Origin: Dehalococcoidia bacterium
Lineage (GTDB): Bacteria; Chloroflexota; Dehalococcoidia; UBA6926
Reading direction: 5' to 3'
NCBI GenBank assembly: GCA_034428515.1
Contig: DAOUHQ010000007.1
Location: forward strand, 6,258 to 70,257
DNA length: 64,000 nucleotides
Of the stretch, positions 18,086 to 47,751 are shown piece by piece (position 1 is the stretch's first letter; each line of letters starts with the position of its first letter). The notes below the pieces were generated by a model. The model did no database searches and was not told where the DNA came from. It saw nothing but the letters and a program-made list of their open reading frames with translations. A program made the position numbers and the translations under genes.

Positions 18086-19048
18086 TTACTTCTGACCGCC
18101 CCGCTCCCTGCGAATCGCAGAAAAATCTTCCCGACGCCATCGGTAAGGGGAGTGGACGATGGTTCCCGGTTCCGTGACAGTCTCCAGCAGGTTGAGTGCG
18201 TCTTCAACGATTGTTCTCTGTTGATCCACATTGTCAGGCTGCCCGAACGGCTGACCATACGGGTGTTTCACATAGAGTGAGCGTGGCGGTTTGACCCGCA
18301 TGGGCTGCTGTAGTCCCTGGTTCACCACCACCGTCGATATCCCGTGCTCCTCGAGCACGCGCGCGATCAGCCCGCCGGACTGATTGCACATCGGTCAAGT
18401 CGTTCCGATTAGTGCGGCGTCGACGTCTTCCTCCAGGAGCATCCTCGCAACTTCAGGTGCCGTCTCCTCCATCAGGCGAGGGATATTGTCGCCGATGATG
18501 TACCCCATGAAGCCAAAGGAATTCGCCGCGAGTGACCCAATCCGTCTTTCCTCTTCCATATCCCGAAGTCGTTCGATTGGAAAGATGACGTTGACGTCCT
18601 TCTCCGCATTGGACTTGTCATAGTGCTCATGGAAGATCGCCAATTCCGACGTTGGCGTAGTGGATGGAATCACGCGGTACGAGGGATCGTCGTCTATGTA
18701 TGGTTCCTGGGCGTCCCGCACATAGGACCCGCCTGTTGTAACTAGCGCAATGCGTGCCTCTGAAAGCGGCTTCTGAAATGCCGTCCACGGTGAGGAATCA
18801 AAAGATATCGCGTTTGGATTCACTCGCGATACGAGATCGCGTTCCCACTCTCCCAAGTATGCGTCCACCCGAGACCAATCGCCATCGTCATGGGAGAGCA
18901 GAGCGGCCTCATAGAGCCCCCTAAAGAAACGAGTCGCCTCTTCCTCCGGTAAGCGTTCCACCCTGATCTTGGAGAACGCCATGTTCTCGATGGACGGCGG
19001 CAGTTGCGCCAGGTCGCGTAGTTCAATCGGCATAAGAAATCCTCTCAT
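18086..19048 (-). CDS. GrdB/PrdB-family (glycine/proline reductase protein B-like) selenoprotein; in-frame TGA (Sec) at 18397..18395; U-x-x-C motif
   Basis: ORFs 18395..19048 and 18086..18391 share a frame and are separated only by TGA-CCG. N-terminal part carries the GrdB-family block HEHYDKSNAEKDVNVIFPIERLRDMEEERRIGSLA. Context is ALIGTT-U-PMC. Hairpin CAGUCC-GGC-GGGCUG sits 12 nt after the UGA. Confidence 0.6.
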
Positions 19049-19069
19049 GCGCCTCGGTGCTGAGATTCG

Positions 19070-19489
19070 TCAGACAGGACGCCAAAATTCGTAGACCAGG
19101 GCCAGTTCTTTGAGGTAGGCCTCTTCATCATCGCAGTCCCATCCGCGCATCTCGCGAATGAGGTCGCAGAACAGGCTGCCCGGCCGCTTGGTGTGCTGAC
19201 TAACAACAACAACGCCGAGCAGCGGGCGCTGGAATCCACCTTCAAGCTCGCTGACCATCGTCAGCAGTTCGCCTGAATTGCGGGCGTTGATGGCGGGGTC
19301 GCCCAGTTGGGCGGCGAATTGGACATACGTCACGCGCTGTCCACTGCGAGCGATTGGGATGAGAATCTGACGCGCGCGCTCCATTAGCGTCGCATCAATG
19401 GGTACTCCGGAGTCCCCCTCCTCTGCTTCCCTCTCGCGCTGTCGTCCCAACGCGAGAGAAGTCAGCAAGGGATCAGGCTCAAAGACCAT
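19070..19489 (-). CDS. hypothetical protein, paralog A (MGMT-like winged-helix without PCHR)
   Basis: 139 aa; homologous to adjacent 19528..20049 protein (RVTYVQFAAQLG / RTISYGEMATAM; PLLGVVVV / GLLGVLVV). Confidence 0.5.
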   Translation of the reverse strand: MVFEPDPLLTSLALGRQREREAEEGDSGVPIDATLMERARQILIPIARSGQRVTYVQFAAQLGDPAINARNSGELLTMVSELEGGFQRPLLGVVVVSQHTKRPGSLFCDLIREMRGWDCDDEEAYLKELALVYEFWRPV

Positions 19490-19527
19490 GGTTCTTCCGT
19501 AGACATCTTTAGTGGGGCCTCCGCCGA

Positions 19528-20049
19528 TTATCTTCTGACTATCCTCGCAAGACTCTGTATGAAGGCCCGGAACGGGTTGCCTTTCTCAGAGGTCGATGTG
19601 CCGCGGGAAGCAGCGGATTCGTGGTCATCACTGGCGTAAAGGCGCTGTAGCTCCTTTACGACATGGTCGTGGAGAATATCCAATTCCTCCGCAGGGCGTC
19701 CCTGCCAATGCGCAGTGACCCTCTCAGACTCTTCCAGGTAAAAGACCTTCTCGTTCTCGAATTTGCGTCCCAGTTCGCGAGCGAGGTTGAAGAATGCGGC
19801 GCCAGGTGTTCCCTGGCGCTTCCGGACAACCAGCACCCCCAGCAAGCCCCGGCCTGCCTCTTCCTCGGAGCGCGATAACTCATTCAGTGCCTCGGTGAAT
19901 TGGCTGCTCTGCGGGCTGAGCACCATTGCAGTTGCCATTTCACCGTAAGAGATTGTCCGACCCTCCCTGGCGCGAGCCACAAGAATCTCCCATGCTCGCA
20001 CTAGAACCCCATGGTCGTGATCACCGACATCTATTTGGGCACCACTCAT
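19528..20049 (-). CDS. hypothetical protein, paralog B
   Basis: ATG at 20049 with GGGGGA SD; 173 aa; tandem paralog of 19070..19489. Confidence 0.5.
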   Translation of the reverse strand: MSGAQIDVGDHDHGVLVRAWEILVARAREGRTISYGEMATAMVLSPQSSQFTEALNELSRSEEEAGRGLLGVLVVRKRQGTPGAAFFNLARELGRKFENEKVFYLEESERVTAHWQGRPAEELDILHDHVVKELQRLYASDDHESAASRGTSTSEKGNPFRAFIQSLARIVRR

Positions 20050-20068
20050 CACGGTCCCCCGGCGATTA

Positions 20069-22306
20069 CTACTTCAGTTCTTGGTACACTTTCTCCGCTG
20101 TGATCGGCAGGCTATCCACACGCGCGCCGATGCTGTCCGCAACCGCGTTGGCGATGGCCGGTGCGGCCATGCTGTTTGCATGCTCTCCGATGCCACGTGC
20201 TCTGAGTGGGCCGTGACCGTCATCGGACTCCATCACGACAACGTCCAGACTTGGGATGTCTCGAGCCGTCGGCAGCTTCATGTCTGCGAATGACGGATTC
20301 ATAACACGCCCACTCTCGTCGTAGAATAACCCCTCCATCAAGGCCGACCCAATGGACTGTACAATGCCGCCCTCAATCTGGCTGGTAAATCCCATGGGAT
20401 TCAGCACACGGCCGGTCTCATGCACTGCCGTATAGCGAATTGGCGTCACCTCTGCGGTGTCAGGGTCGACTGATACATCCACGACGTGGACGCCGTAACC
20501 GTTCCACGGGCTGTCAAAGCCCTCCATCTCATCGGTTCGCGCGCCAACAGGCTCGCCAAATCGACGCGCAATGTCCTCGATGGCGATTCGCTCATCCGAG
20601 TTCGCGCCGTTCACGATGTGGCCCGCCTGGATTGTCAGACGCTCCTCGTCCCAACCCATGAACTCTGAGGTGAGGCGCTGCAACCGACCTTTGACCTCTT
20701 GCATCGCGTTAAAACCCGCCGTGCTGAACATCCTCGCGCCGCGGCTCCCGGCAATGCCCATGTCTCCCGTCTTGCCCTCACGTGTCGACCATGTGACGAC
20801 ATCGATGCGGTCAATGGGAATATCGAGTTCATCTGCGACGATCTGCGCGATGATCGTCCCCGTGCCCGTCCCTGGATCGAAGACCGGATGGTTGACCTCA
20901 ACCCGGCCATTCTCCATCACCTTGACGGCCACGCTGCCTGTCGCGCCAATCTGCGAGTGGCTGCCAATTGCTACGCCTCGTCCCACGCCTTCCGGCTTCG
21001 GGTCGTAGTAACCGGCTGCCTCTGCCGCGCGCCGCAACGCCGCGCCGGCCTGGACGTTCTCCCACTCCTCGCCCGTCGGGTATTCTTCGCCCGGCTCAAC
21101 CACGTTCTGCAGCCGGAAATCCATGGGATCCATGCCGATGGCCTTTGCCAGCACGTCCATGTGGGACTCGCCGGCGAAATGAGCCTGTACGTGCCCGGGC
21201 GCTCGCGCGTACGTGCACGGAGACGTGTTGGTATATACCTGGTGCGAGTCCACCTTGACGTTTGCAATCCGGTACGGCCCCACTATCTCAACAATGCCCA
21301 GGATGGCGGGCAGTGGGGCATAAGCTGCATAGCCGCCACCTGCGAAATGAACCTCGGACTCCCACGCCGTGATCGTGCCGTCGTTCTTCACGCCGGCCTT
21401 CACCCGCATCGTTGCCGGGTGGCGCATATTCATGTTCTGGAACTCTACGTCGTACTCAACCGTCCACTTGATTGGTTTTCCGGTTCGCATATGGAACTCA
21501 TACGCGAGCGCAACGTCCGTGCCCGACGACTTACCGCCGAATGAGCCGCCCACGTAATTGAAATTGAAGTTGATGTTGTCCTCGTCAACTTCGGTCAATC
21601 GCGCTAGTTCTTGCAGCGCTCCCGTCGGCGTGTCGTTCGCATTCCACACTTGAATGACGCCCTCGTCATCGACGTACACGAGGCAGGCATGAGGCTCAAG
21701 ATAGCCCTGGTGAAGCAGGGGAGTGCGGTATGTCCGTTCAATCACATGATCAGCGTCAGCGAACCCGGCATCCAGGTCGCCCTTGGCAAAATGAATGCCC
21801 GCGTACCGGTTGGGGTGTTCGTCGCGTGGAGGCATTCCCTCATACGAACCCGCGTCCGGGTGAAGGATGGGGGCATCCGCCGTCATCGCGTCCTCCGGCG
21901 CGATAATCGCCGGAAGCTCCTCGTATTCGATGTCGATCAGCCCGATGGCCTGCTGCGCGATGTCCTCATCGTCCGCCACCACGGCGGCTACCTTGTCGCC
22001 AACAAGCATGACCTTGTCCCATGCCAGCAGGGGCATGTCCTTGATCATTCCGCCGGTCAACCTGCCCTTGAGGTCCTCACCGGTCAGAACCAGGTGGACG
22101 CCGGGCAGCGCGCTGGCGGCTGACGCGTCGACAGATACGATGCGCGCATGGGGGAACGGGCTGCGCAGGATCTTCATCCACAACATGCCCGGCATCTGCG
22201 CGTCCAGTCCATAGACCGCAGATCCGGTCACCTTTTCTGGCCCATCAACTCGCGGAACAGAAACCCCTACAAGCTTTGAACCACCGCTATCGGCAGTTGA
22301 TGTCAC
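20069..22306 (-). CDS. xanthine dehydrogenase/aldehyde oxidase/CoxL-family molybdopterin-binding large subunit (orphan)
   Basis: 745 aa; N-terminal a/b-hammerhead and MoCo-binding domains; GTG start with AGGGGGA SD; no FeS or FAD subunit genes adjacent. Confidence 0.85.
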   Translation of the reverse strand: MTSTADSGGSKLVGVSVPRVDGPEKVTGSAVYGLDAQMPGMLWMKILRSPFPHARIVSVDASAASALPGVHLVLTGEDLKGRLTGGMIKDMPLLAWDKVMLVGDKVAAVVADDEDIAQQAIGLIDIEYEELPAIIAPEDAMTADAPILHPDAGSYEGMPPRDEHPNRYAGIHFAKGDLDAGFADADHVIERTYRTPLLHQGYLEPHACLVYVDDEGVIQVWNANDTPTGALQELARLTEVDEDNINFNFNYVGGSFGGKSSGTDVALAYEFHMRTGKPIKWTVEYDVEFQNMNMRHPATMRVKAGVKNDGTITAWESEVHFAGGGYAAYAPLPAILGIVEIVGPYRIANVKVDSHQVYTNTSPCTYARAPGHVQAHFAGESHMDVLAKAIGMDPMDFRLQNVVEPGEEYPTGEEWENVQAGAALRRAAEAAGYYDPKPEGVGRGVAIGSHSQIGATGSVAVKVMENGRVEVNHPVFDPGTGTGTIIAQIVADELDIPIDRIDVVTWSTREGKTGDMGIAGSRGARMFSTAGFNAMQEVKGRLQRLTSEFMGWDEERLTIQAGHIVNGANSDERIAIEDIARRFGEPVGARTDEMEGFDSPWNGYGVHVVDVSVDPDTAEVTPIRYTAVHETGRVLNPMGFTSQIEGGIVQSIGSALMEGLFYDESGRVMNPSFADMKLPTARDIPSLDVVVMESDDGHGPLRARGIGEHANSMAAPAIANAVADSIGARVDSLPITAEKVYQELK

Positions 22307-22458
22307 TTTCCATCCCCCTTAACAATCTTCCTTAACTACGTTCTAGCATTGTAACTCAGAGATACGTGTGTCCGCCCCTGTAGCAGCACGACTCTGAGCA
22401 CTGCTACACTCAAGGCGGTACGCAAAATCACTTTCTTTGGGGCAGGGGGAATACGTCT

Positions 22459-23253
22459 ATGCCGACCGTCCAGACCAACGGAATCGAAACCGCCTACACA
22501 GACCAGGGGCAGGGCGACGACCCACCGGTCGTGCTCATCCACGGCTTTCCGTATAACAAGTCCATGTGGGACGACCAGGTTGCAGCGCTCTCCGGCAGTC
22601 ATCGCGTCATCACCTACGATCTTCGGGGGCACGGTGATTCCGGCTCGACAACTGAGACGTACACGATGGAAATGCTGGCGGATGATCTTCATGACCTGGT
22701 TGAAGAGTTGTCTCTCGGCGAGGTTGCCCTTGGTGGTTTCTCCATGGGCGGCTATGTTGCGTTGGCCTTTGCTGCCGCCTATCCGGAGCACCTTTCCAGC
22801 CTGATGCTGCTTGATACACGCCACCTGCCGGACTCAGAACAGGCAGCAGAGGGGCGCGAGAATCTCGCCAAGCAGGTTGAGGCGGACGGCGTTGGCGGTC
22901 TTGCGGAGGCGCTGCCCGCGCGAATGTTGACTGAAGCCACTGTCAACGGCAAGCCGGACGTGGTCGCAAAGGCGTCGGACATGATTCGAGCGGCGTCACC
23001 CGAGGGCGTCGCGGGAGCGGCGCGCGGCATGGCGGTGCGCCCTGACCAGACCGATACATTGGGCAGTATCCACGTGCCCACGCTGATTGTCGTTGGCGAT
23101 CAGGATGGCATCACTCCGCCTGCGGATGCGCAGACCATGGCGGACGCCATCTATAACTCAACTCTGGTCACAATCGCTGATGCCAGCCATCTTTCCAACC
23201 TGGATAAGCCGGACGAGTTTAACAGGGCATTGATTGACTTCCTCAGCGCCTGA
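22459..23253 (+). CDS. alpha/beta hydrolase
   Basis: 264 aa; HGFP oxyanion motif; nucleophile elbow GFSMGG. Confidence 0.8.
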   Translation: MPTVQTNGIETAYTDQGQGDDPPVVLIHGFPYNKSMWDDQVAALSGSHRVITYDLRGHGDSGSTTETYTMEMLADDLHDLVEELSLGEVALGGFSMGGYVALAFAAAYPEHLSSLMLLDTRHLPDSEQAAEGRENLAKQVEADGVGGLAEALPARMLTEATVNGKPDVVAKASDMIRAASPEGVAGAARGMAVRPDQTDTLGSIHVPTLIVVGDQDGITPPADAQTMADAIYNSTLVTIADASHLSNLDKPDEFNRALIDFLSA

Positions 23254-23683
23254 GCCCAACGCTCGCGCAGGGCTCGAAACCGTTCACGCCGGGCAGGAAT
23301 TCACGCCAACTCAGCTTGACCTCAGCCGCGAGGCCGTCGTCGGCCTCCTGGACTCCATTCAGGCCGCCCTGCCTCAGGATGAGAATGGTGTGGAGCTGGT
23401 GCCGCCGTCTGTCGTGGCGTCCCTTTCCCTCGGCGTCCTCCTGCAACATGTTTCACTTCCCGCCGGTTCGCTGCATGCCTCGCAGGAGATCCGCATATGG
23501 CGGCCGATTCCCGTGGGCTCGCGGGCGGTCTGCGAGGCCGTCGTTGCCAACATGTCGAACAGGGCGGGCATGACGTTGGTCTCTCTGGACTTCAATGTTG
23601 AAAGCCATCCCGACGACTCCGGTAGCAGTCAGCAGCTCGCGACCGGCAGCGGCACGGTCATGTTCCCCGCCGGAAGTAGATGA
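23234..23683 (+). CDS. hotdog-fold protein (dehydratase N-terminal partner, HadA-like); start uncertain
   Basis: 149 aa; hotdog-like; immediately precedes MaoC dehydratase; overlaps upstream gene so true start probably internal. Confidence 0.45.
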   Translation: MTSSAPEPNARAGLETVHAGQEFTPTQLDLSREAVVGLLDSIQAALPQDENGVELVPPSVVASLSLGVLLQHVSLPAGSLHASQEIRIWRPIPVGSRAVCEAVVANMSNRAGMTLVSLDFNVESHPDDSGSSQQLATGSGTVMFPAGSR

Positions 23684-23693
23684 GGGCGGTCTC

Positions 23694-24101
23694 ATGACAC
23701 CGGACACCGGCCCGGTTCTCACACGGACTGTGACGCAGGAGCGTATCGACGCGTACGCCAAGGCATCAGGCGACCACAACCCGGTGCATCTTGACGCTGA
23801 ATTCGCAGCGACAACCCAGTTCGGTGGCACAATCGCGCATGGAATGATCCTCTTCGGGTACATATCTGACGCGCTTTTGCAGGTATATGGCGTGGCATGG
23901 GTTGTCAGCGGCAGGATGCGTGCCCGTTTCCGTGCCCCAGCCCGCCCGGGTGACATCGTGGAGGTATCCGCAGAAGAGCGGTCACGCCATACACGAGACG
24001 ATGGCACAATAGACGTGCATTGCATCGTAGAATGTTGGAAAGCCCATCCCCGCGAACGCCTCGCGACTGGTGACGCGACACTGACAGTAACGCAAGAATA
24101 G
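23694..24101 (+). CDS. MaoC-family (R)-specific enoyl-CoA hydratase/dehydratase
   Basis: ATG at 23694 with GAGGG SD; hydratase-2 motif DHNPVHLD...GGTIAHG. Confidence 0.7.
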   Translation: MTPDTGPVLTRTVTQERIDAYAKASGDHNPVHLDAEFAATTQFGGTIAHGMILFGYISDALLQVYGVAWVVSGRMRARFRAPARPGDIVEVSAEERSRHTRDDGTIDVHCIVECWKAHPRERLATGDATLTVTQE

Positions 24102-24149
24102 GAACGCAGTCCGAACGTGGGACAGCGTGATTGACCGGAGGAGAGAATC

Positions 24150-25202
24150 GTGACGACGCCCCCGCCTGATGGACGCGGATTCCGCGTAGCGCTGGATGCC
24201 ATGGGGGGTGATCATGCCCCTGCCGAGATCGTCAGTGGTGGTGTTGCAGCAGCGCGTGAGGGAGCAACCGTCTTTCTCGTTGGCGTGCCTGAGCGCGTGC
24301 AGGCAGAATTGGACAAGCAGGACGTCAGTGGACTCGCCATTCAGATTGTCCCGTCCGATGACGCCATTGAAGAGACCGAACAGCCTGCCCTCGCCTTGCG
24401 TCGTAAGCCAAAGGCATCCGTTCTCGTCGCCACCGGTCTTGTGAAGGAAGGCATGGCTGACGCTGTTGTCAGCATGGGTTCCACCGGCGCGTTGATGGCC
24501 AGCGCCCACTTCCTGCTTGGCACGCTTGAGAACCTTGATCGCCCCGTGTTGGGCGGTCCCGCCCTCGGCTACGCCCCCAATACAATCTGGCTGGACATGG
24601 GCGCGAACGTCGATGCCCGTCCCACCCAGTTCCTTGATTTCGCGGCCATCGGTGTTGCCACCGCCCGGGCCTATCTGCAAATTGACAACCCCAGCGTCGC
24701 ATTGCTCAACGTCGGTGAAGAACCAACAAAGGGTAGCAAGCAGATCAAGGAAGCATACACGACCCTTAAGGAGGCTTCCGGCCTGAACTTTATCGGGAAC
24801 GTTGAGGGGCATGAGGCCGCGCAGGGCAAGGCGAACGTCATCGTTGCAGACGGCTTCGTCGGAAACGCCCTCCTCAAGTACAGCGAAGGCCTGAGTCAGG
24901 CAATCGCCCGTGATCTTGGCGAGAGGCTTGCACCGGAAATAGGCCCTGAAAAGGCTCGCGATATCGCCATGAGTATCTTCCGAAAGATCAACCTGATGGA
25001 GGCGGGAGGCGGTCCGATTCTGGGTGTCAACGGCATCGTCGTCGTCGGACATGGCCGTGCCCGCGCGCCCATGGTTCACGGTGCAATCCGTACGGCTGAG
25101 CTCCTGAAGGACTCCGGACTCGTCAGCGCCATCAAGACTGAATTGAGCGCCATTCATGCGCGGAACCAGGCCGCTGAGCCGGCCGCCTCGCCGGGAGCCT
25201 AA
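24150..25202 (+). CDS. plsX: phosphate acyltransferase
   Basis: 350 aa; VALDAMGGDHAP start motif typical of PlsX. Confidence 0.9.
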   Translation: MTTPPPDGRGFRVALDAMGGDHAPAEIVSGGVAAAREGATVFLVGVPERVQAELDKQDVSGLAIQIVPSDDAIEETEQPALALRRKPKASVLVATGLVKEGMADAVVSMGSTGALMASAHFLLGTLENLDRPVLGGPALGYAPNTIWLDMGANVDARPTQFLDFAAIGVATARAYLQIDNPSVALLNVGEEPTKGSKQIKEAYTTLKEASGLNFIGNVEGHEAAQGKANVIVADGFVGNALLKYSEGLSQAIARDLGERLAPEIGPEKARDIAMSIFRKINLMEAGGGPILGVNGIVVVGHGRARAPMVHGAIRTAELLKDSGLVSAIKTELSAIHARNQAAEPAASPGA

Positions 25203-25206
25203 GCAC

Positions 25207-25992
25207 ATGCAGACCCAGGCTGAATTGGCAACGCAAGAATCCAAAGAACTCGCGGGGCACGTTGCCCTCGTCACCGGCTCCGGTCGCGGCATCGGCAAGG
25301 CGGTCGCCCTCAAGCTGGCCTCTATGGGCGCCAATATCGTCGTCAATTACAACGCGAGCGGCGATCTTGCTCAGGGAGTTGTCGAAGAGATCAAGGGCCT
25401 CGGGGTTGAAAGCACCTCATTCCAGGCCGACGTCTCCCAGACGGATCAGGTTGAGGCGATGGTCAATGGCGCAGTGGAGACCTTCGGCAAGGTCGATATT
25501 CTCGTGAACAACTCCGGCATCATCCGCGATAAGCTCCTTCTCCGCATGACGGACGATGATTGGGACACCGTCATTGGGACTGACCTGCGCGGGCCGTTCC
25601 TCTGCACGCGTGCCGTCATCCGCTCCATGATGCGAGAACGCTGGGGACGCATAATCAACATCTCCTCCGTCGTCGCGCTCGCCGGCAACCCCGGCCAATC
25701 CAACTACGCCGCTGCAAAGTCCGGCCTCACCGGATTCACCTACAGCGTGGCCAAGGAGCTGGCCGCGAGAAACGTCACGGCCAACATTGTCGCGCCCGGA
25801 TACATCTCCACTGACGTTACTGAAAACCTGCCTGAAGAGATCAAGCAGCAGCTGACCGACCACATCCCGCTCGGGCGGCGGGGTCATGCGTGGGAAATCG
25901 CGGAGATTGTCGCCTTCCTGTGCACCGATCGCGCCTCGTACATCACAGGACAACAGATCGCCGTCGATGGCGGCCTTGCCCTGACCGGCTGA
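25207..25992 (+). CDS. fabG: 3-oxoacyl-ACP reductase
   Basis: ATG at 25207; SDR motifs TGSGRGIG, NNSG, YAAAK. Confidence 0.9.
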   Translation: MQTQAELATQESKELAGHVALVTGSGRGIGKAVALKLASMGANIVVNYNASGDLAQGVVEEIKGLGVESTSFQADVSQTDQVEAMVNGAVETFGKVDILVNNSGIIRDKLLLRMTDDDWDTVIGTDLRGPFLCTRAVIRSMMRERWGRIINISSVVALAGNPGQSNYAAAKSGLTGFTYSVAKELAARNVTANIVAPGYISTDVTENLPEEIKQQLTDHIPLGRRGHAWEIAEIVAFLCTDRASYITGQQIAVDGGLALTG

Positions 25993-26026
25993 CGGCAGGA
26001 CGCCGACCGGTCATCTTGCATACATC

Positions 26027-26680
26027 GTGCGTGTCATCGACATCTCAGTCCCACTGAAATCTCTCAAGGACGGGATGCACATCTATCCTGGCGATACTCC
26101 CTATTTCGCCAGCACGGAAAAGACCATCCACAAGGACCGCATGAGGCTGTCCCGCATCGAAATCGGCTCTCATAACGGCACTCATATCGACGTGCCCGCG
26201 CACTTCATCGACGGCGGAGCAGAAACCGAAACCCTGCCCCTTGAATTGGTTGTTGGCCCGGCGTGGGTTGCAGACCTTACCGGCTTGACAATGGGTACGG
26301 GCATCACCGTCGAGCACCTTGAAGCCGCCATGCCGGACACATCCGTCGAGCGCCTCCTCCTCAAAACGCGCAATTCCGCCCTCTGGACACGAGACTACTT
26401 TCAACCGCGTTTTGTCTTCCTGACTCCGGAGGCCGCCGATTGGCTCGTCGAGAGAGGCGTCCGCTCGGTCGGAATCGACTATCTATCGATCGAGCGATTC
26501 GGCGGCGACAGCCCCAGGGCTCACTTGGCCATCCTCGGAGCGAACGGCGTCATCATGGAGGGCCTTGACCTCACACACGTCGAAGCCGGCCGTGAATACA
26601 CCCTAGCCTTCCTCCCTCTCAAGGCCCCCGGCCTCGACGGCGCCCCCGCCCGCGCCGTCCTGATTGCAGACGAAGAATAA
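26027..26680 (+). CDS. cyclase family protein (kynurenine formamidase-like)
   Basis: 217 aa; HxGTHxDxPxH motif (GSHNGTHIDVPAHF). Confidence 0.7.
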   Translation: MRVIDISVPLKSLKDGMHIYPGDTPYFASTEKTIHKDRMRLSRIEIGSHNGTHIDVPAHFIDGGAETETLPLELVVGPAWVADLTGLTMGTGITVEHLEAAMPDTSVERLLLKTRNSALWTRDYFQPRFVFLTPEAADWLVERGVRSVGIDYLSIERFGGDSPRAHLAILGANGVIMEGLDLTHVEAGREYTLAFLPLKAPGLDGAPARAVLIADEE

Positions 26681-26718
26681 CCTCCCACGCCACCCCGCGC
26701 CGGTCCCCAACCCGGCGC

Positions 26719-26775: not shown

Positions 26776-26799
26776 TTTGCCTACCAAACCCCTCATTAG

Positions 26800-26841: not shown

Positions 26842-26857
26842 CCCCCTCCACAAAAAG

Positions 26858-38947: not shown

Positions 38948-38987
38948 CGTCCATGACCCAATCCGTGGGCGATAGAATGAGCGCACG

Positions 38988-40931
38988 ATGAGCATTGATC
39001 TCGCTAAGGTCGCCCGCGGCCTGCCCACACAGCCCGGCGTCTACATCTTTCGTGACGCGCGCGGCAAGCCGATTTACGTCGGTAAGGCCGCAATCCTCCG
39101 CCACCGCGTTCGCTCCTATTTCGGCTCAGACGCCCTGACGCCGGGAACCAAGGCATTCCAGATCGCGCAACGGGCCTCTGACCTTGAGTGCATCGTCACG
39201 ACGACTGAGGCGGAGGCCCTGATCCTTGAGAACACACTCATCAAGCGCCACAAGCCGCGGTTCAATGTCCGCCTGAAGGACGACAAGACCTATCCATATC
39301 TCAAGATCGATGTCCGCGAAGAATGGCCGCGTGTGTACATTACGCGCCGGATGCAGGACGATGGCGCGCGCTATTTCGGCCCCTATGCCAGCGCGTCTAG
39401 CGTCCGCAAGACCCTTGACCTGCTCAACAAGCTGTTCCCCTACCGCTCCTGCACCAAGGAGATCACCGGCACAGACCCTCGCCCCTGCCTTGATTACCAC
39501 ATCAAGCGCTGTCTCGGCCCCTGCATCGGAGCGGTATCGAACGAGGATTACCGCGAAGTTATCGGGCAAGTTTCTGCGTTCCTGGAGGGCAAGCAGGCGG
39601 CAATCGCGCGGGATATCAAGCGGAAGATGACCGACGCTTCCGACAACCTCGAATACGAGCGCGCCGCATTCTTCCGCGACCAAATCAACGCCATCAACCG
39701 TGTCTCCGCCGAGCAGAAGGCCGTTTCCACCCATGCCGTCGACGAGGACATCATCGCCATAGCCCGCGCCGGCAACGAGGCATGGGCGGAAGTCTTCTTC
39801 GTCCGCGGCGGGAGACTACTGGAACGCGACAATTTCCTGCTGGACGGCACGCTCGGCGAGACTGACGGAGAGGTGCTGGCCGGATTTATCAAGCAGTTCT
39901 ATGTGAACAGCCCGGTCGTGCCGCCGCGCATCCTGACGCAAGCGCCTGTCGCCGACGGTTCCGCTATCACGGAATGGCTTGAAGAGCGACGAGAAGGCCG
40001 CAAGGTGCGTCTCATCGTCCCGCAACGTGGAGAGCGCAAAAAGTTGCTGGAGCTCGTTGCTGAAAACGCCCTGCAAGGCCTCGAAGCCCTTCGTATCAAG
40101 GTGCTCGCGGATGAGGCGGCGACGGAAACGGCGCTCTCGGAACTCAAGGAACAACTCAACTTGCCTGAACTGCCGCGCCGCATTGAGTGCTACGACATCT
40201 CCAACACGCAGGGCACGAACTCCGTCGCCTCCATGGTTGTGTTCCAGGACGGACAACCACTCAAAGATCACTACCGCCGTTTCCGTATCAAGACGGTGGA
40301 GGGCGCGAACGATTTCGCGTCGCTGCAAGAGGTCATTCGCCGCAGGTTCCAGCGCTCCGGCGCGCTCGGCAGCGCAGCCCGCGGCCTTGCGTCGACCGCC
40401 GAGGATGCAGAGGAAGTCATCGCGCAATTCAAGTCGGCCCCGTCTCGCAACAAGGACAACCGCGGCGGTTCAAAGAAAGAGACGGCAGACGGATCGTTTA
40501 TGACTCTCCCTGACCTTGTGTTGATCGACGGCGGTAAGGGACAGCTGAACGCCGTCGCAGAAGTGATGCGTGTGGAGCTTGGGCTGCACCAGATCCCGCT
40601 CGCGTCGCTAGCGAAGCAGGAAGAGGAGGTCTTCCTACCGGAGATGGCCGAGTCAATCATGCTGCCCCGCACCTCTCCGGCCCTCTACCTTGTTCAGCGT
40701 GCCCGCGATGAGGCGCATCGATTCGCCATCACCTTCCATCGCAACATCCGCCAGAAGAAGGGCATGGAATCGATGCTTGATGCCGTCCCCGGCATCGGTC
40801 CGCGTCGCAAGCGAATGCTCATGCGCCACTTTGGCAGCCTCGACGCCATCCGCGAGGCCACCATCGATGACCTCTCTGCCGCCCCCGGCATGACCAAGCG
40901 CCTCGCCGAACGCGTCAAAGAATACGTGTAA
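38988..40931 (+). CDS. uvrC: excinuclease ABC subunit C
   Basis: 647 aa; GIY-YIG N-terminal (GVYIFRD...IYVGKA), UvrBC and HhH domains. Confidence 0.9.
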   Translation: MSIDLAKVARGLPTQPGVYIFRDARGKPIYVGKAAILRHRVRSYFGSDALTPGTKAFQIAQRASDLECIVTTTEAEALILENTLIKRHKPRFNVRLKDDKTYPYLKIDVREEWPRVYITRRMQDDGARYFGPYASASSVRKTLDLLNKLFPYRSCTKEITGTDPRPCLDYHIKRCLGPCIGAVSNEDYREVIGQVSAFLEGKQAAIARDIKRKMTDASDNLEYERAAFFRDQINAINRVSAEQKAVSTHAVDEDIIAIARAGNEAWAEVFFVRGGRLLERDNFLLDGTLGETDGEVLAGFIKQFYVNSPVVPPRILTQAPVADGSAITEWLEERREGRKVRLIVPQRGERKKLLELVAENALQGLEALRIKVLADEAATETALSELKEQLNLPELPRRIECYDISNTQGTNSVASMVVFQDGQPLKDHYRRFRIKTVEGANDFASLQEVIRRRFQRSGALGSAARGLASTAEDAEEVIAQFKSAPSRNKDNRGGSKKETADGSFMTLPDLVLIDGGKGQLNAVAEVMRVELGLHQIPLASLAKQEEEVFLPEMAESIMLPRTSPALYLVQRARDEAHRFAITFHRNIRQKKGMESMLDAVPGIGPRRKRMLMRHFGSLDAIREATIDDLSAAPGMTKRLAERVKEYV

Positions 40932-41019
40932 GCTTCTCCGTCTCGCCCGCCGCCTGACGTATACTCAATGGGCGACTGAGGATGGTCGCCACGTTCATTC
41001 TGGGGGAGGGATATTCCAC

Positions 41020-41835
41020 ATGGCCGATTTTGAGACCCTTATCTATGAGGTTGGCGATGATGGCGTCGCTCAAGTCACGCTGAATCGACCGGAGCGCCGC
41101 AACGCGCTCAATCATGATCTGCTTGAGGAGCTTGAGCAGGTCTTCGATGCTGTCGAGAACGATGACAACGTGCGAATCGCCGTCATCACCGGCGCCGGCC
41201 CTGCATTCTGCGCGGGCTACGATCTGACTCCAAACCAGGAACGGCCAACGTACAGCGCCACTGAGCGTTGGGAGAATACCCATTGGCAGGCCAGGCTCGT
41301 TTCCCGCCCGTGGTACTCCCGCGTCCCATGGATCGCTGCGGTCGACGGCCCCGCAGCCGCCGCAGGCAACGTCCTCGCCATGAGTTGCGACCTCATAGTC
41401 GCGTCCGAGCGCGCACAGTTCGGCGAGCCTGAGATCCGCCACGTTGCCCACTCGCCTCACGTCCTGCTGCCGTTCATCACAAGCAACCGCCACCTGCGCG
41501 AGTTCTACTACACCGGTGACTTCATCGACGTCGAAACCGCCGAGAAGTGGGATTTGGTCAACAAGGTCGTTCCCGCTGGTGAGGCGCTTGACGCCGCAAT
41601 GGAGATGGCCCGCCGTATTGCGCAGGTGCCGCCTTTCGCGCTCCAGATGATGAAGCGATCAATAACCGCCGTTTACGATGCGCAAGGCTTTGGCAAGGGT
41701 CTTGATGACCACCTCATGCTCCGCATGATTGAGTCGCTGACGCCGGACGTGCCGGAGCGTGAGCACTTGGGCAAAGTGCGCGTGGAGCAGGGTATGAGGG
41801 CGTTCCTGGACGCGCGTGACGGCCCATTCCGTTAG
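41020..41835 (+). CDS. enoyl-CoA hydratase/isomerase family protein
   Basis: 271 aa; crotonase fold (ITGAGPAFCAGYDL). Confidence 0.8.
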   Translation: MADFETLIYEVGDDGVAQVTLNRPERRNALNHDLLEELEQVFDAVENDDNVRIAVITGAGPAFCAGYDLTPNQERPTYSATERWENTHWQARLVSRPWYSRVPWIAAVDGPAAAAGNVLAMSCDLIVASERAQFGEPEIRHVAHSPHVLLPFITSNRHLREFYYTGDFIDVETAEKWDLVNKVVPAGEALDAAMEMARRIAQVPPFALQMMKRSITAVYDAQGFGKGLDDHLMLRMIESLTPDVPEREHLGKVRVEQGMRAFLDARDGPFR

Positions 41836-41881
41836 GCCGAGACGTACCAGGGACGTTCTGGCTCAGTCGTGAGGCTGATGG

Positions 41882-42436
41882 ATGGCCGATAACCAGCAGG
41901 GCAGTCACCCGCCCATCATGCACGGGCACGGTCAGGCGAAGTTCTGCCTGAACTGTGGACAGGAACTTGCCGAGCGCGAGATTGACGGCGCGATGCGCCC
42001 TGCTTGCGAGGACTGCGGCTATGTCCACTACACGGATCCCAAGGTCGCCGTCGGCGTGCTGATCGGCGACGCGCAGGGACGTGTCCTGCTCATGCAGCGG
42101 GCGCATCACCCACGCAAGGATCTGTGGTCATATCCGTCAGGATTCGTCGATGCCGGTGAAAAGGTGGAGGACGCCGCTGTCCGTGAGACGCTAGAGGAGG
42201 CGGGCGTCACCGTCGAACTAGATGGCCTCCTTGGACTCCACTCGGAAACCGGCAACCGTGTCATCCTCGTGGTTTACCGGGGGCACATTGTGGAGGGGGA
42301 GCCGAGGCCCGGCGAGGAGAGCCTGGCAGTCGACTACTTTGACGCCGCCGACCTGCCGGACCTCGCTTTCGACCGGGACCGCAGGATTATCCAGGATTGG
42401 CACAAGAAATTCGTCGCGAGCCCGACAGGAAACTGA
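41882..42436 (+). CDS. NUDIX hydrolase with N-terminal zinc ribbon
   Basis: 184 aa; CLNCG...CEDCG zinc ribbon; Nudix box GEKVEDAAVRETLEEAGV. Confidence 0.75.
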   Translation: MADNQQGSHPPIMHGHGQAKFCLNCGQELAEREIDGAMRPACEDCGYVHYTDPKVAVGVLIGDAQGRVLLMQRAHHPRKDLWSYPSGFVDAGEKVEDAAVRETLEEAGVTVELDGLLGLHSETGNRVILVVYRGHIVEGEPRPGEESLAVDYFDAADLPDLAFDRDRRIIQDWHKKFVASPTGN

Positions 42437-42452
42437 CAGAAAACACTGATTC

Positions 42453-43388
42453 GTGAGAACATCGGAAAGAATTGGGGAACCAATGGAGGAGGGGAAAATG
42501 ACGGACTACGAAAACATCATCTATGAGCTGCGTGAGGCAGCCGGCGGCAACGTTGCCTACATAACGCTGAATCGCCCCGAGCGCCTGAATGCGCTCAGCC
42601 GCGGCTTGCTGGCGGACGTTGGCAGCGCGCTCGAGGAGGCGGACAAGGACGAGACCGTCCGCTGCATCGTCATCAAGGGCGCCGGCCGCGCATTCTCAGC
42701 GGGCTATGACATGAACGTGCAGTCCGAAGGCAATCTGCCGCGTGACGCGCTCACCATGATTACCAGCGACCACCCCACGACGATGTATCGCCGTTGGATC
42801 TGGGGCAATCGCAAGCCGGTCATCGCTCAGTGCCATTCGTTCAGCCTCGCAGGTGGCGGGCAGTTGGCTTGCCACTGTGACATCACGATCGCCTCCGATG
42901 ACGCGCTCTTCGGCTACCCGCCTGCGCGCTACGCCAGCGTGGCGACGTACATGATCTGGCCGGAATTGGTCGGCATGAAGAAGATGAAGCAGTTGGCATT
43001 CACCGGCAACATGATGAACGCGCAGGAAGCCCTCCGCGTTGGTCTGGTGAGTGAGGTTGTGGATCGGGACGAGCTGGATGACTACGTCTGGACGCTCGCC
43101 AACACAATCTCCAAGCTTCCGCCGGCCTCGACGGAGCTTAACAAGCGCGCCATCAACTACTACTACGAGTCTCAGGGCATGTTCCAGGCCTATGAGTACG
43201 CCGAGAACCTGATGTACGTGTCCTACGCCGCATCGCCGGAGGATCTGCCCAAGGGCCTGCAGGACGTGGATCGCGTCACGGCAGAGCAGGGTATGCGCGC
43301 CGGGTTCCAGTACATGAACGAGGCCTTCACGGACGAGGACCAGGCCATCGCTGCTGAGCAGATGGCGCGTCCCAGCCGCGCCCCCTAA
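42453..43388 (+). CDS. enoyl-CoA hydratase/isomerase family protein
   Basis: 311 aa; crotonase motif IKGAGRAFSAGYDM. Confidence 0.75.
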   Translation: MRTSERIGEPMEEGKMTDYENIIYELREAAGGNVAYITLNRPERLNALSRGLLADVGSALEEADKDETVRCIVIKGAGRAFSAGYDMNVQSEGNLPRDALTMITSDHPTTMYRRWIWGNRKPVIAQCHSFSLAGGGQLACHCDITIASDDALFGYPPARYASVATYMIWPELVGMKKMKQLAFTGNMMNAQEALRVGLVSEVVDRDELDDYVWTLANTISKLPPASTELNKRAINYYYESQGMFQAYEYAENLMYVSYAASPEDLPKGLQDVDRVTAEQGMRAGFQYMNEAFTDEDQAIAAEQMARPSRAP

Positions 43389-43568
43389 AACCGTAGGCCA
43401 TGACGCCCGTCCGCCCCCTGTGCTAAATTGGGCGGACGGGCGATTAGCCGCATCGCGGCCAGTACCCGGTGTGGTGGGGTAGGTGACGATTAACTCATTT
43501 CGTACACCCCTTGAAGAAGCACTGATACATCGTCGTGCCCGGCACGACTGCAAGGGAGGGAGATTGGC

Positions 43569-44582
43569 ATGAAGGCACTCGTCTTCGATGAGTATGGTGG
43601 CCCGGAAGTCCTCCAATGGAAGGACATCGATGACCCCAAGCCCGGGCCGAATGACGTCGTGATTGAGGTCAAGGCAACGGCCATCAACTACAACGACGTC
43701 TGGGGACGCCGCGGCGCGCCTATGGAAGTGGAACTGCCACATATCTCCGGCAGCGACGCATCCGGCGTCGTCGTCGACAAGGGCAGTGAGGTCACGTCGC
43801 ATTCAGTCGGTGACGAAGTTGTCGTTCACTGCGGTCGCCCGGCTTTCAATAATCGCACCGGGCAGGAGTGCAACATCTGGGGCTACGACTGGCCCGCGCT
43901 TGACGGTGCGCACGGCCAGTACGTCCGGGTGCCGGCGGAGAACGCCGTTCCCAAGCCCACCAACCTCACGCATGAAGAGGCCGCATCTTTCCCACTCGTC
44001 CTTGTTACGACGTGGCGCAAGCTGGTCGAAAAGGCGAGCATCAAGCCTGGCGACAACGTCCTCATCTGGGGCGCGGCCGGTGGTCTTGGTGTTATGGCCA
44101 TCCAGATTGCCAAGCTGTTCCAGGCGCATCCGATCGCTGTTGCCTCCAGCGATGAAAAGCTGGAACTGTGCAAGGACCTCGGCGCGGAGTACCTGATCAA
44201 CCGCAAGACGCAGGATGTCCGGCAGGAGATGCGCAACATTGTGGGGCGGCGCGGCGCGGATATCGTTTTCGAGCATCCCGGGCAGGCCACCATGGGCCTT
44301 AGCATCCAGCTCGCCAGCTGGGGCGGCACCGTCGTCACCAGCGGTGCAACCAGCGGCTACGACGCCAACATTGACCTCCGCCACATCTTCTTCCGACAGG
44401 TCAAGCTGGTCGGTTCCACACTTGGCACCGTCCACCAGTTGCAGGACGCGCTGGACCAGGTGCAGGCAGGCCACATCAAGCCGGTCATCGACCGCGTCCT
44501 CCCGATGAAGGACGCAGGCGAAGGCCAGGTCCTCCTCGAGACTGAGGCGGTTGCGGGCAAGGTCGTCCTGGTCCCGAACTAA
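43569..44582 (+). CDS. MDR-family zinc-binding dehydrogenase / NADPH:quinone reductase-like
   Basis: 337 aa; GAAGGLG NAD(P) motif. Confidence 0.8.
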   Translation: MKALVFDEYGGPEVLQWKDIDDPKPGPNDVVIEVKATAINYNDVWGRRGAPMEVELPHISGSDASGVVVDKGSEVTSHSVGDEVVVHCGRPAFNNRTGQECNIWGYDWPALDGAHGQYVRVPAENAVPKPTNLTHEEAASFPLVLVTTWRKLVEKASIKPGDNVLIWGAAGGLGVMAIQIAKLFQAHPIAVASSDEKLELCKDLGAEYLINRKTQDVRQEMRNIVGRRGADIVFEHPGQATMGLSIQLASWGGTVVTSGATSGYDANIDLRHIFFRQVKLVGSTLGTVHQLQDALDQVQAGHIKPVIDRVLPMKDAGEGQVLLETEAVAGKVVLVPN

Positions 44583-44676
44583 ACTCTGACCACACATCGT
44601 GAACAAAGGGGGGCGCCCGCAAGGGCGCCCCCCTTTCTTGTTTCCCTCAAACGGACTGGAATGAGAAACTGGGCGC

Positions 44677-45417
44677 ATGACACGCCCAGACTCGCTCGCC
44701 CACGCCGTCGTCTTTATTGACGGGTTTGACCCGCGTGCCGTCCTGCCCGCCACGGGCCCTCATCCGGCGTTCAGAGATGTAAACGGCATGCCCGCCTCAG
44801 ACGCGCTTCTCCGACATCTCGCAGCGCAGGGAATAACGGAAGTCTGGCTCGTCTCCCGTGCTCTGCCCGGCATGGTCGTTCACTACTTTGGCGATGGAAG
44901 CCGTTGGGGAGTCAGCGCGACACACGTCCGACAGGACGGATCGCCCGGCTCCGGCGGCGCACTGTCGGCCGTTCGCCAGCAGATCACGGAATCGACGCTC
45001 GTCATTGACGGTGCACTCGTGACAGACCTCGAGTTGGGTGCCATGTTCGAGGATCACCGCTCTGCCGACGTAGACCTCACTATGTGCCTTACGGGCGACG
45101 TGCAGGAAACAGCAGGATTGCCCCGCGCGCTAATCGATTCATCCTCACCTTTCGTGCAACAGATCCTGGTTGATCCACCGTTCCCGGCCAACCCGGAGAT
45201 CCTTGTCGGAGTCGGCGTCTACATCATTGAACCGGAGGCCGTGGAGCCGTTGCAGACGGCAGGGGTGAACGCGGATTGGGTGACGGATGTCCTTCCTAAC
45301 CTAGCCCGGCAGAGTCGTGTCCGGGGATGGCAGGCCAACCCCGGCACCCGATTCGATCTTCCGCGCCGCGTCCGTGTCATGCATTCCCAGACCGGCCGCG
45401 CGCTTCCCACAACCTGA
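44677..45417 (+). CDS. nucleotidyltransferase-like (sugar-phosphate NTP-transferase fold, degenerate)
   Basis: 246 aa; weak NTP_transferase similarity. Confidence 0.4.
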   Translation: MTRPDSLAHAVVFIDGFDPRAVLPATGPHPAFRDVNGMPASDALLRHLAAQGITEVWLVSRALPGMVVHYFGDGSRWGVSATHVRQDGSPGSGGALSAVRQQITESTLVIDGALVTDLELGAMFEDHRSADVDLTMCLTGDVQETAGLPRALIDSSSPFVQQILVDPPFPANPEILVGVGVYIIEPEAVEPLQTAGVNADWVTDVLPNLARQSRVRGWQANPGTRFDLPRRVRVMHSQTGRALPTT

Positions 45418-45581
45418 ACGTCTGAGCGATTGACCAGAGCACTAAACGGGCTTATAATTCGAAATCGGTTCAAAACAAATTCTCGGTTTTGTTTTGGATA
45501 TCTTGGCCCTTGGAGGGTCAAAGCGCGGGATACGGGAGCAGTTGAGATAGCGGGCTACGGCCCAAAGAGGAGTGGTGTGTC

Positions 45582-46352
45582 ATGCCATGGACGCATGCGG
45601 GCGTAAGCAGACGCCTGAAATTGCTCGGCGTGCTGGGAATCGTTGGTGGACTTCTGTTGGCCTCCATTACCGTCGCCCTGGCGCAAGAGACTACTGGAGA
45701 CGATGAAAATACCGTCTCCGCTGATTTTGAATATGACGCAGGCGTCACCGTAGACATCCCTGCTACATTCTTCCCCGGCTTCGATGCGGCGGGATCCCTG
45801 ATGATTCAGCCTCGCGCGCTGCAATTGGACGGCAATGAGATGCCGTCGGGCACCATCACAATTGAGCCGCTTGAGCTGGAAGAAAGCCAGACGATGCCCG
45901 CGCTCATTGCTCCTAATCCGAGCAAGCCCAGTGGAAGCACAGCAGAATACCTGCGCCGCGCAGTTACCGTTTCCGTCAGCATTGGCGGCGAGGATGCGAG
46001 CGGAGCAGCACGCTTCAACCCCACCATGATGCTCAATCTGGACCTGACGGATGCTGAATGGGAAGAAGCGGAAAATGACCCGGATGCGTTCGTCGTTCGC
46101 GCCTGGGATGCCGGCAGGAACATGTGGTTGACTGTCGAAACATCCACTAATCCGTTCGATATGGTCGTTACGGCCAAGGTCGCCCGGGCCGGTCAGTTCG
46201 CACTGTTCAGAGAGGAACCGCCGCCGCCTATCCAGGGTGGAGACGTTACCCTGAATTCAATGACGCTGCTGTTCATCGCCATGTTTGGATTCGCACTGGC
46301 CGCTACCGGCGTCATGATGGCGCGTGGCACGCTGGGTCGGCGCAACGACTAG
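45582..46352 (+). CDS. secreted hypothetical protein with C-terminal GG-TM-basic anchor
   Basis: 256 aa; signal peptide; acidic; C-terminus IQGGDVTLNSMTLLFIAMFGFALAATGVMMARGTLGRRND. Confidence 0.5.
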   Translation: MPWTHAGVSRRLKLLGVLGIVGGLLLASITVALAQETTGDDENTVSADFEYDAGVTVDIPATFFPGFDAAGSLMIQPRALQLDGNEMPSGTITIEPLELEESQTMPALIAPNPSKPSGSTAEYLRRAVTVSVSIGGEDASGAARFNPTMMLNLDLTDAEWEEAENDPDAFVVRAWDAGRNMWLTVETSTNPFDMVVTAKVARAGQFALFREEPPPPIQGGDVTLNSMTLLFIAMFGFALAATGVMMARGTLGRRND

Positions 46353-46427
46353 ACTTCGACACTCAAGAACTCACGGGGCGCGGAGGGCTGCCCTGCCCAC
46401 CGCGCCCCGTTCCGTTATTGTGGGTAG

Positions 46428-46880
46428 GTGCAACCTGATTCCACCGCAGTCATTCGTGTCGCCTTGCTCCGCGAGGGCGCAAGTCTACCGTTCCGCGCCA
46501 CACCCGGCTCGACAGGCTTCGATATCCATGCCTGCCTCCAGGATGGAGAGGAAGAGATCATCGTTGGCCCTGACCCGGTACTGATTCCAACCGGCATCGC
46601 CCTCGAGTTCCCTCCAGCTCTCGATGTCCAGATTCGACCACGCTCCGGCCTCAGCAGCAGGGGAGTGATGAGTACCGTCGGGACCATCGATAGTGACTAT
46701 CGAGGCGAGGTCTTCGTCACCTTGTACACCGTTGGAAACCGGCCGCCCCATGTCGTTCGCAATGGAGACAGGATCGCGCAGATCGTTGTCGGTATCCGCG
46801 CCGACATCTCACTCGAAATCGCTGAAAGCCTGAGGGAGACGGAGCGGGGCGGTGGCGGACACGGCTCTACCGGCGCCTAA
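46428..46880 (+). CDS. dut: dUTP diphosphatase
   Basis: 150 aa; dUTPase motifs (PGSTGFDI, RPRSGL, GTIDSDYRGE). Confidence 0.85.
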   Translation: MQPDSTAVIRVALLREGASLPFRATPGSTGFDIHACLQDGEEEIIVGPDPVLIPTGIALEFPPALDVQIRPRSGLSSRGVMSTVGTIDSDYRGEVFVTLYTVGNRPPHVVRNGDRIAQIVVGIRADISLEIAESLRETERGGGGHGSTGA

Positions 46881-46923
46881 CTCCCGCCGTTCATCCTGAG
46901 CCTGTCGAAGGGCATGAACGCCC

Positions 46924-47751
46924 TCACACCTCAAGCGGCGTATCGTCCCGGTTCGCCCACTCCCGCATGGAACCGTCGTAGTTCCGCGTGTTTTCATAAC
47001 CAACAAGCCGCATGACGAATACTCCGTGCGCCGCACGGATGCCGCCCTGTCAATAAGTGTAGACATTCTTGTCCGGCGTGATGCCATGTTCAGAGAGCAG
47101 CCGCCGTATCTCGGACGCCGACTTAAACCGATGTGTTTCGCGATCCATCAATTTGAGCCATTCAAGGTGCACGGCTCCAGGGACATGCCCGGCGCGCGCG
47201 TTGGCGCGGTTGTTGGATCCGTCCCATTCGCCATCGGTGCGAACATCCCAAACGACGGAATCCTCAAACGTGCACGCCTCTTTCAGGTCCTCTACTTTCA
47301 CCAGCATTGAGTCGTCGAGGTTAGGGGTGAACGTTGCGCCCTGCGCTCGCGCCGGACGCTGAAAGCTGATCGCGTGGCCGCCTGTGACCCACTCACGCCA
47401 GCCGCCGTTCAGAACTCGCGCGTCCCTGTGCCCGTACGTGTTGAGTACCCACCACAGGCGTGCCGCGGTCACACTCTGTCCGTTGTCGTAGCAGATTACC
47501 GACGTGTCGTCGCTGATCCCTAACCCTTCGCACATCTCCTTGAACTGTGAGGGAGTCATCATCAGCGTGCGATTCGTGTCAGGGTCTTTCACGAAGTTGT
47601 CCGGGATCAGAACTGCTCCCGGGATATGGCCTCTGTTGTAGCCCGCATCCACGTCGCAGTCCACGACGACAACGTTGTCGTCGTTCAAGTGCTCTGTCAG
47701 CCAATCCGCCTCGACCAGATACTCCGGATGTGCATAATCCTTGGTAGTCAT
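46924..47751 (-). CDS. rhodanese-like (tandem-domain) sulfurtransferase with TGA at catalytic-Cys position (candidate selenoprotein) at 47052..47050
   Basis: ORF track stops at 47050 after ...KNVYTY. Same frame continues past the TGA as QGGIRAAHGVFVMRLVGYENTRNYDGSMREWANRDDTPLEV* (stop 46926..46924). This reconstitutes the C(U)QGGIR active-site loop and the YDGSxxEW motif; full length is 276 aa. Hairpin UCCGUGC-GGC-GCACGGA lies 10 nt after the UGA. Confidence 0.6.

Follow-up and report, generated by a model that had tools for sequence, protein, structure and literature searches.

A 64,000-nt stretch of DNA from a Dehalococcoidia bacterium (Chloroflexota; 61% G+C), referred to here as the window, contains two unrelated genes with an in-frame UGA codon, and each UGA is followed at nearly the same distance by a GC-rich hairpin with the loop GGC. 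A preliminary description of the window took the recurrence of this arrangement as a sign of a selenocysteine (Sec) insertion sequence (SECIS) that is specific to the lineage. The question raised by the locus is whether the two hairpins are SECIS elements at all and, if they are, whether they belong to the organism or to bacteria in general. We consider it highly likely that both are ordinary bacterial SECIS elements within the coding sequences of two unrelated, previously described selenoprotein families. Both UGAs are read as Sec codons because the TGA is conserved, coding continues across it, homologues carry cysteine at the same position and the synonymous (wobble) positions are frozen over the stems. 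The features on which this reading rests are the following.

18086..19033, minus strand: PrdB/GrdB-like selenoprotein gene, 315 codons with an in-frame UGA and a TAA end, from its translation and its Pfam/TIGR matches
18395..18397, minus strand: Sec codon 1 (UGA), in the motif GTT-U-PMC (UxxC)
18361..18389, minus strand: SECIS 1, with a lower stem GUGC/GCGC, a 1x1 internal loop, an 8-bp upper stem AUCAGUCC/GGGCUGAU and the triloop GGC
46923..47751, minus strand: tandem-rhodanese sulfurtransferase selenoprotein gene, 275 codons with an in-frame UGA, matching Pfam Rhodanese PF00581 twice
47050..47052, minus strand: Sec codon 2 (UGA), in Y-U-QGGIRAA, at the catalytic Cys position of the active-site loop
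47023..47039, minus strand: SECIS 2, with a 7-bp stem UCCGUGC/GCACGGA and the triloop GGC at 47032-47030

The two hairpins and their placement behind UGA

With the U of UGA counted as nucleotide 1, the upper stem of SECIS 1 pairs nucleotides 14-21 with 25-32 (18384-18377 with 18373-18366) and includes one U.G pair among its 8 bp. It begins 10 nt past the UGA and carries its triloop at nucleotides 22-24 (18376-18374), and a lower stem of 4 bp follows beyond the 1x1 internal loop. The predicted fold has a free energy of -15.7 kcal/mol, or -9.1 kcal/mol for the upper stem-loop alone. The stem of SECIS 2 (nucleotides 14-20 with 24-30) also begins 10 nt past its UGA, with the triloop at nucleotides 21-23 and a predicted free energy of -9.9 kcal/mol; relatives keep only the inner 6 bp, a core predicted at -8.0 kcal/mol. 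The UGA and the loop are thus separated by 18 nt in SECIS 1 and by 17 nt in SECIS 2. The two hairpin strings quoted in the preliminary description occur once each, on the minus strand at 18382-18368 and 47039-47023, and both the strings and the spacing of +10 to +12 that it gave for the GC-rich GGC hairpins could be confirmed. Its version of hairpin 1, with 6 bp, begins at +12. The stem length of 6-7 bp that it proposed holds for site 2, with 7 bp, but not for the 8-bp upper stem of site 1; conversely, its consensus NNNNCC-GGC-GGNNNN fits site 1 but not site 2, which closes as GC-GGC-GC. Just 3' of SECIS 1 lies a second 7-bp hairpin (GUGCUCG-AGG-AGCAC region, 18343-18359, minus strand), which recurs in orthologues. 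Since its wobble positions are not frozen, this hairpin is probably incidental.

To judge chance, the hairpin pattern was sought at +20 to +22 behind each of the 13,317 in-frame codons of 37 genes in the window. It follows four of them: a TGG, an AAC and both of the in-frame UGAs, which are the only ones present. The probability that both in-frame UGAs carry the pattern by chance is about 7e-8. The frequency of the pattern behind other in-frame codons, on which the preliminary description had made its case depend, therefore puts the association far beyond chance. Only seven hairpins on the two strands of the window have a GGC triloop on a stem of 6 bp or more with no more than one G.U pair, and three of the seven stand 20-22 nt after a TGA triplet. 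The third combination of TGA and a 6-bp GGC hairpin (43968-43938, minus strand, with its TGA at 43968-43966) was rejected as a false positive. Its TGA is out of frame and lies on the strand opposite a gene for a zinc alcohol dehydrogenase (43515-44582, plus strand), and it shows the limited specificity of such a descriptor.

Elsewhere in the window UGA is a stop. TGA ends 11 of 36 genes, and a genome-wide reassignment of UGA was rejected on this ground. The rhodanese gene is itself among the 11: it terminates at a second UGA, 42 codons past the first, with no hairpin behind it.

Conservation across the UGA codons and selection on the stems

Site 1 was followed through the DNA of 21 Dehalococcoidia genome loci, together with tandem paralogues and more distant homologues, and site 2 through 75 related metagenome loci and three closer relatives. 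The metagenome loci were recovered with an alignment query, a single-protein query having confirmed none. At site 1, the TGA and the downstream frame are retained in 21/21 genome loci, and the TGA also persists in an orthologue that is 53% identical and in two paralogues arranged in tandem. Cys occupies the Sec column in more distant full-length homologues (P0040, P0043, P0048, P0051, P0060, P0061, P0063 and P0064). At site 2, TGA stands at the Sec codon in the 75 metagenome loci and in the three close relatives.

The start of the PrdB-like protein at the AUG at 19033 is backed by homologues (an alternative AUG lies at 19048). The protein scores 35.8 bits against Pfam GRDB (PF07355; cutoff 22) and carries the U/C-x-x-C motif, which places it in the GRDB superfamily; against TIGR04483 (PrdB) its score of 165.3 bits lies under the equivalog cutoff of 300. 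For the rhodanese, the 3-mercaptopyruvate sulfurtransferase model (NF008557) aligns over residues 10-274 and spans the UGA, with a score of 138 bits, which is under the equivalog cutoff of 250. The PDB rhodaneses 1UAR and 3HZU also align across the UGA, and the Sec position (X in the query) falls on the Cys of their Y-C-R-I-x-E-R-S active-site loop. With two rhodanese domains and Sec at the catalytic Cys of the C-terminal domain, the protein belongs to the COG2897 type.

Gene callers annotate products of 212 and 233 aa at the two loci, each followed by short downstream open reading frames (ORFs), which would fit real stop codons in a split gene, a pseudogene or pairs of separate short genes. 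Close database homologues of the PrdB-like protein all end at 212 aa, precisely where the TGA falls, and more than 100 close database homologues of the rhodanese end at 232-234 aa. We dismiss this explanation with near certainty. Dozens of diverged genomes have the TGA at this same codon and conserve the frame that follows it, and termination would cost the rhodanese the catalytic residue itself. The Met two codons past UGA 1 is not a restart codon either, since it is Ile or Val in orthologues. In this respect the preliminary description was right that the UGAs are not chance stops, given the retention of TGA (21/21 and 75 loci), the Cys in homologues and the frozen wobble positions.

These wobble positions were compared, as entropy in bits, between stem codons and other conserved codons. 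In the PrdB-like set (n = 24), the entropy is 0.17 over the stem codons and 1.19 elsewhere (p = 9e-5). Among the rhodaneses, it is 0.04 over the stem and 1.21 elsewhere in type A (n = 31 distinct relatives, p = 0.005), and 0.04 and 0.96 in type B (n = 24, p = 0.001). The frozen codons, which read AUC-CGU-GCG-GCG-CAC in type A, include minority codons of this genome (AAU, 27%; GGG, 21%; CGU, 15% of Arg). The loop codon GGN of the PrdB-like genes is fully free at its third base (C/G/A/U; 1.61 bits). Type B rhodaneses encode the same I-R-A-A residues with free wobble positions (AUU/AUC/AUA; CGA/AGA/CGG), and their frozen stretch lies 8 nt downstream, over a different hairpin.

The comparison with type B bears on another possibility, in which the hairpins merely reflect the coding of two conserved and partly palindromic peptides (NQSGGLI and IRAAHG) and do nothing as RNA, the UGAs being read through or suppressed in some other way. 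The peptides over both hairpins are indeed highly conserved, so that most stem columns are invariant. Synonymous positions, however, are frozen over the stems only, and with minority codons, and the synonymous changes that are present keep the pairing. Since the frozen sites lie over the stems and move with the hairpin in type B, the hairpins are not mere by-products of peptide conservation, and an explanation from the peptides is hardly credible. RNA-level selection acts on both stems.

The pairing itself is well kept, with 94.6% of the cells paired in the alignment of SECIS 1. Site 1 has one double compensatory change, from G-C to A-U (CAG/CUG to CAA/UUG), in an AT-rich homologue (L109 among the related loci), and synonymous changes there from U.G to U-A and from C-G to U.G preserve the pairing. 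Site 2 has two compensatory pairs, a value reached by 0 of 500 shuffles. Besides that of L109, the compensatory changes recorded are C-G to G-C (L091, L092 and L094) and G-C to U-A (L090).

Several observations weigh against reading the two hairpins as SECIS elements. Strict double-sided covariation is sparse, since the peptides encoded there are conserved as well: site 1 shows one event and site 2 shows two. In a rhodanese that is 84% identical to that of the window (L113, 4699-4765), a change from CGU to CGC gives a C.A mismatch in the type A stem; the mismatch may be tolerated, may reflect an error of assembly or may mark a weaker SECIS. Both 101-nt site regions were searched against Rfam release 15 at E<=10 with no relevant match, the lone hit being a spurious 7.5-bit small RNA on the opposite strand. 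As for the decoding machinery, ARAGORN found no tRNA-Sec in the window and in 45 related loci, and tblastn of E. coli SelA, SelB and SelD over 0.93 Mb, comprising the window and the related loci with their flanks, found none, with a weak GTPase match in L101 only. The closest relatives of the window are Dehalococcoidia and Chloroflexota metagenome-assembled genomes (MAGs), some with names that suggest a sponge or coral origin. Among closed genomes, OY762213.1 has a PrdB-like protein 98% identical to that of the window, and OZ250138.1 carries both genes. SelA/SelB COGs are reported from most sponge-symbiont bins (PMC5649159), which supports the presence of the machinery in this group indirectly.

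General or lineage-specific elements

The general bacterial SECIS consensus (Zhang and Gladyshev's bSECISearch model, for which PMC13188914 gives a summary) describes a stem of 4-16 bp with a loop of 3-9 nt, a spacing of 16-37 nt between UGA and loop, a minimum free energy of -7.5 kcal/mol or lower, and G in the first two loop positions, the loop usually being G[G/U]N closed by a pair. Both sites agree with it on every structural point, and both lie, as it requires, directly 3' of an in-frame UGA inside the coding sequence. We found no structural difference from the consensus; both sites are near the short end of its spacing range (17-18 nt). They can also be set beside the SECIS of E. coli fdhF, the sequence of which was confirmed in 5,419 genomes. 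That element likewise has its upper stem-loop about 11 nt past the UGA, with the GGUC loop at nucleotides 22-25 compared to nucleotides 22-24 and 21-23 here. It differs in its tetraloop (GGUC, in the predicted fold), whereas the elements described here have GGC triloops on uninterrupted and more stable stems. In the fdhF SECIS, G23, U24 and the bulged U17 are functionally important. Neither of our sites has a U at loop position 2 or 3 or a bulged U in the upper stem. With these differences in loop and bulge, recognition by E. coli SelB is not implied.

By analogy with the E. coli and Moorella systems, we infer that the hairpin, about 11 nt downstream, would still be folded when the UGA reaches the ribosomal A site, and that its apical G-G/U-N triloop would be bound by the C-terminal winged-helix domains of SelB carrying GTP and Sec-tRNA(Sec). 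The SelB complex would then outcompete release factor 2, so that Sec is inserted in place of termination, and at the second UGA of the rhodanese gene, which has no hairpin, translation would stop. The geometry set by SelB would consist of a G+C-rich stem of 6-8 bp and a triloop of G followed by G or U, with the first loop base 21-22 nt from the U of UGA. The two hairpins would be alike because both must fit this same geometry, which is general to bacteria.

The preliminary description had drawn a different conclusion from the likeness, namely that this lineage has a SECIS type of its own, with a GGC-capped stem of 6-7 bp at +10 to +12 that would be diagnostic for its selenoproteome. Two observations agree with it: all three Sec sites observed in the clade (PrdB-like gene, tandem paralogue and rhodanese) have GGN triloops within nucleotides 21-24, and neither site is matched by any Rfam family. 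The hairpins, however, are not confined in the way that this proposal demands. Homologues at 39-46% identity, on contigs of 27.5% and 62% G+C, retain the register of the PrdB-like hairpin with the loop GUG, and the type A hairpin of the rhodaneses spans contigs of 41-72% G+C. A large clade of rhodaneses 61-70% identical to the window protein has instead the hairpin of type B (GGCGAACA-GUN-UGUUCGUC), whose loop occupies nucleotides 29-31, 8 nt downstream, and one locus (L100, type C) has a third register, with the loop GUC at nucleotides 27-29. The Sec genes of the rhodanese family thus use three registers, at nucleotides 21-23 (GGC), 27-29 (GUC) and 29-31 (GUN; type B, L022-L062). Some type A sequences (L051, L065, L072 and L075) are able to form 7/8 of the type B pairs as well, which points to a route along which the hairpin has migrated within the family.

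Relatives' loops are GGN, GUG or GUN, and what is conserved is a G, then G or U, then any base, on a stem of 6-8 bp. That both loops read GGC owes something to chance in how Gly (GGN) and Ala-Ala (GCG-GCG) are encoded, since at site 1 the last loop base falls on an unconstrained Gly wobble position. Covariance models built for the two families (R1 and R2) score their own sites at 70.4 and 65.5 bits, and each leaves the other's site undetected at E<=10 with filters off. Judged by these distributions, each hairpin is inherited with its own gene family and not with the organism. With every feature accounted for by the general consensus and the fdhF loop position, and with the hairpins following gene families over 27.5-72% G+C, we regard a lineage-specific SECIS as quite improbable.

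The performance of the pattern as a search tool points the same way. Within the 0.93 Mb, which include 118 verified Sec sites, a strict descriptor (UGA, GGC triloop at +20-22, at least 6 bp) recovers 64/118 sites (54%) with 5 other TGA hits, and a relaxed descriptor (G[G/U]N triloop 16-37 nt past the UGA) recovers 115/118 with 128 other TGA hits. A narrow descriptor of the type 'GGC at +10-12' would lose about half of the true sites even inside these two families. Searches for further selenoprotein genes in the window and all flanks, by in-frame TGA between coding-like segments and by both descriptors, found none beyond the two families and the tandem paralogue, and every other hit fell in a junk frame or antisense to a real gene. 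Within these 0.93 Mb the pattern thus recovered no other selenoprotein gene, an outcome that the preliminary description had named as counting against its proposal.

A more restricted form of the proposal is that the SelB of the sponge/coral-associated Dehalococcoidia clade narrowly requires a G-G-N triloop with its first G 21-22 nt from the U of UGA. We consider this unlikely. The three Sec sites observed in the clade agree with such a requirement, yet they represent only two independent gene families; all other hits of the GGN descriptor lie in stop-ridden junk frames. If the requirement were real, a GGN descriptor combined with an in-frame coding filter would enumerate the whole selenoproteome of the clade.

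Gene families, neighbourhoods and decoding of UGA

Both families, described in 2005, appear in published lists of selenoproteins under the motifs UxxC and UxxG (PMC1088965, PMC2398784, PMC13188914). For the marine 'proline reductase PrdB' family (pfam07355, UxxC), the surveys counted 42 Sargasso Sea genes and 235 genes in the Global Ocean Sampling (GOS) data (PMC1088965, PMC2398784). The 'rhodanese-related sulfurtransferase' selenoprotein (COG2897, UxxG) was likewise reported from the Sargasso Sea (PMC1088965) and appears as 'form 2/4' in PMC13188914; a SECIS has been drawn for it before (PMC1088965, PMC2398784). The PrdB-like protein of the window shares with the marine PrdB family the GRDB fold family, the U-x-x-C motif and the pairing of Sec with Cys in homologues. 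It differs in an extra N-terminal region of about 85 residues, in its score under the PrdB equivalog cutoff and in the absence of PrdA among its neighbours, and its gene differs in lying downstream of a xanthine dehydrogenase (XDH)-family Mo subunit and two small ORFs. The window rhodanese resembles the COG2897 selenoprotein in its tandem rhodanese architecture, in its U-Q-G-G motif and in having Sec where the catalytic Cys would stand, and differs in its score under the 3-mercaptopyruvate sulfurtransferase equivalog cutoff. The original observation is correct yet already known in kind: these are standard SECIS elements in known families, and no new recoding signal.

Neither PrdA nor another GRDB-family partner was found among the neighbours of the PrdB-like gene in the window or in related loci. 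With a score under the PrdB cutoff and no PrdA in the vicinity, the PrdB-like protein does not qualify as a genuine subunit of D-proline reductase. The neighbours are a molybdenum cofactor (MoCo)-binding XDH-family subunit, two small ORFs, DUF362 and an amidohydrolase. The gene closes a conserved cluster (18086-22306, minus strand), seen in L001-L021, L102, L103 and L107, which is headed by the large MoCo-binding subunit of the xanthine-dehydrogenase/aldehyde-oxidase family (22306-20069). Between this subunit and the PrdB-like gene lie the two small ORFs (20052-19528 and 19489-19070), which are fast-evolving and paralogous to each other, and for which Pfam and NCBIfam searches gave no match. 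The orthologue at 53% identity (L107) likewise stands directly behind the Mo subunit. From this gene order, a functional link between the PrdB-like selenoprotein and the Mo enzyme is possible.

Some Dehalococcoidia MAGs have two PrdB-like Sec genes in tandem (L102, 5035-6537; L103, 6001-7989). The tandem paralogue is without the N-terminal extension but has an identical UGA context and the same AUCAGUCC-GGN-GGGCUGAU hairpin. At the start of the PrdB-like gene, an 8-bp hairpin GCAUGAGA-GGAUU-UCUUAUGC (about 19051-19031, minus strand) encloses a Shine-Dalgarno-like GAGAGGA and both candidate AUGs. This hairpin begins 18 nt past the UGA stop of the upstream ORF (19072-19070), is kept in L001 and L002, and could mediate translational coupling.

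The rhodanese gene (46923-47751, minus strand) is divergently paired with a gene for a molybdopterin oxidoreductase of the sulfite-oxidase/MsrP type (47865-48476, plus strand), and the pairing is kept in L111 and L113. This arrangement hints that the two proteins may share a role in sulfur or selenium metabolism.

The remainder of the window is ordinary chromosomal DNA, in which mfd, uvrC, valS, coaBC and the like accompany a trp operon preceded by a T-box. The T-box leader (12645-12937, minus strand) scores 116 bits and stands at the head of the trp cluster, upstream of trpE (12600-11053), the gene for anthranilate synthase. A scan of the window with Rfam at gathering thresholds returned the T-box and a tRNA-Arg only.

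Public databases call both genes as truncated proteins of 212 and 233 aa, the rhodanese without its catalytic residue, and the error is repeated in dozens of Dehalococcoidia/SAR202 genomes and metagenome contigs. Both sites are clean examples of selection by RNA structure on wobble positions. As far as comparative sequence evidence reaches, the two genes show that this clade decodes UGA as Sec.

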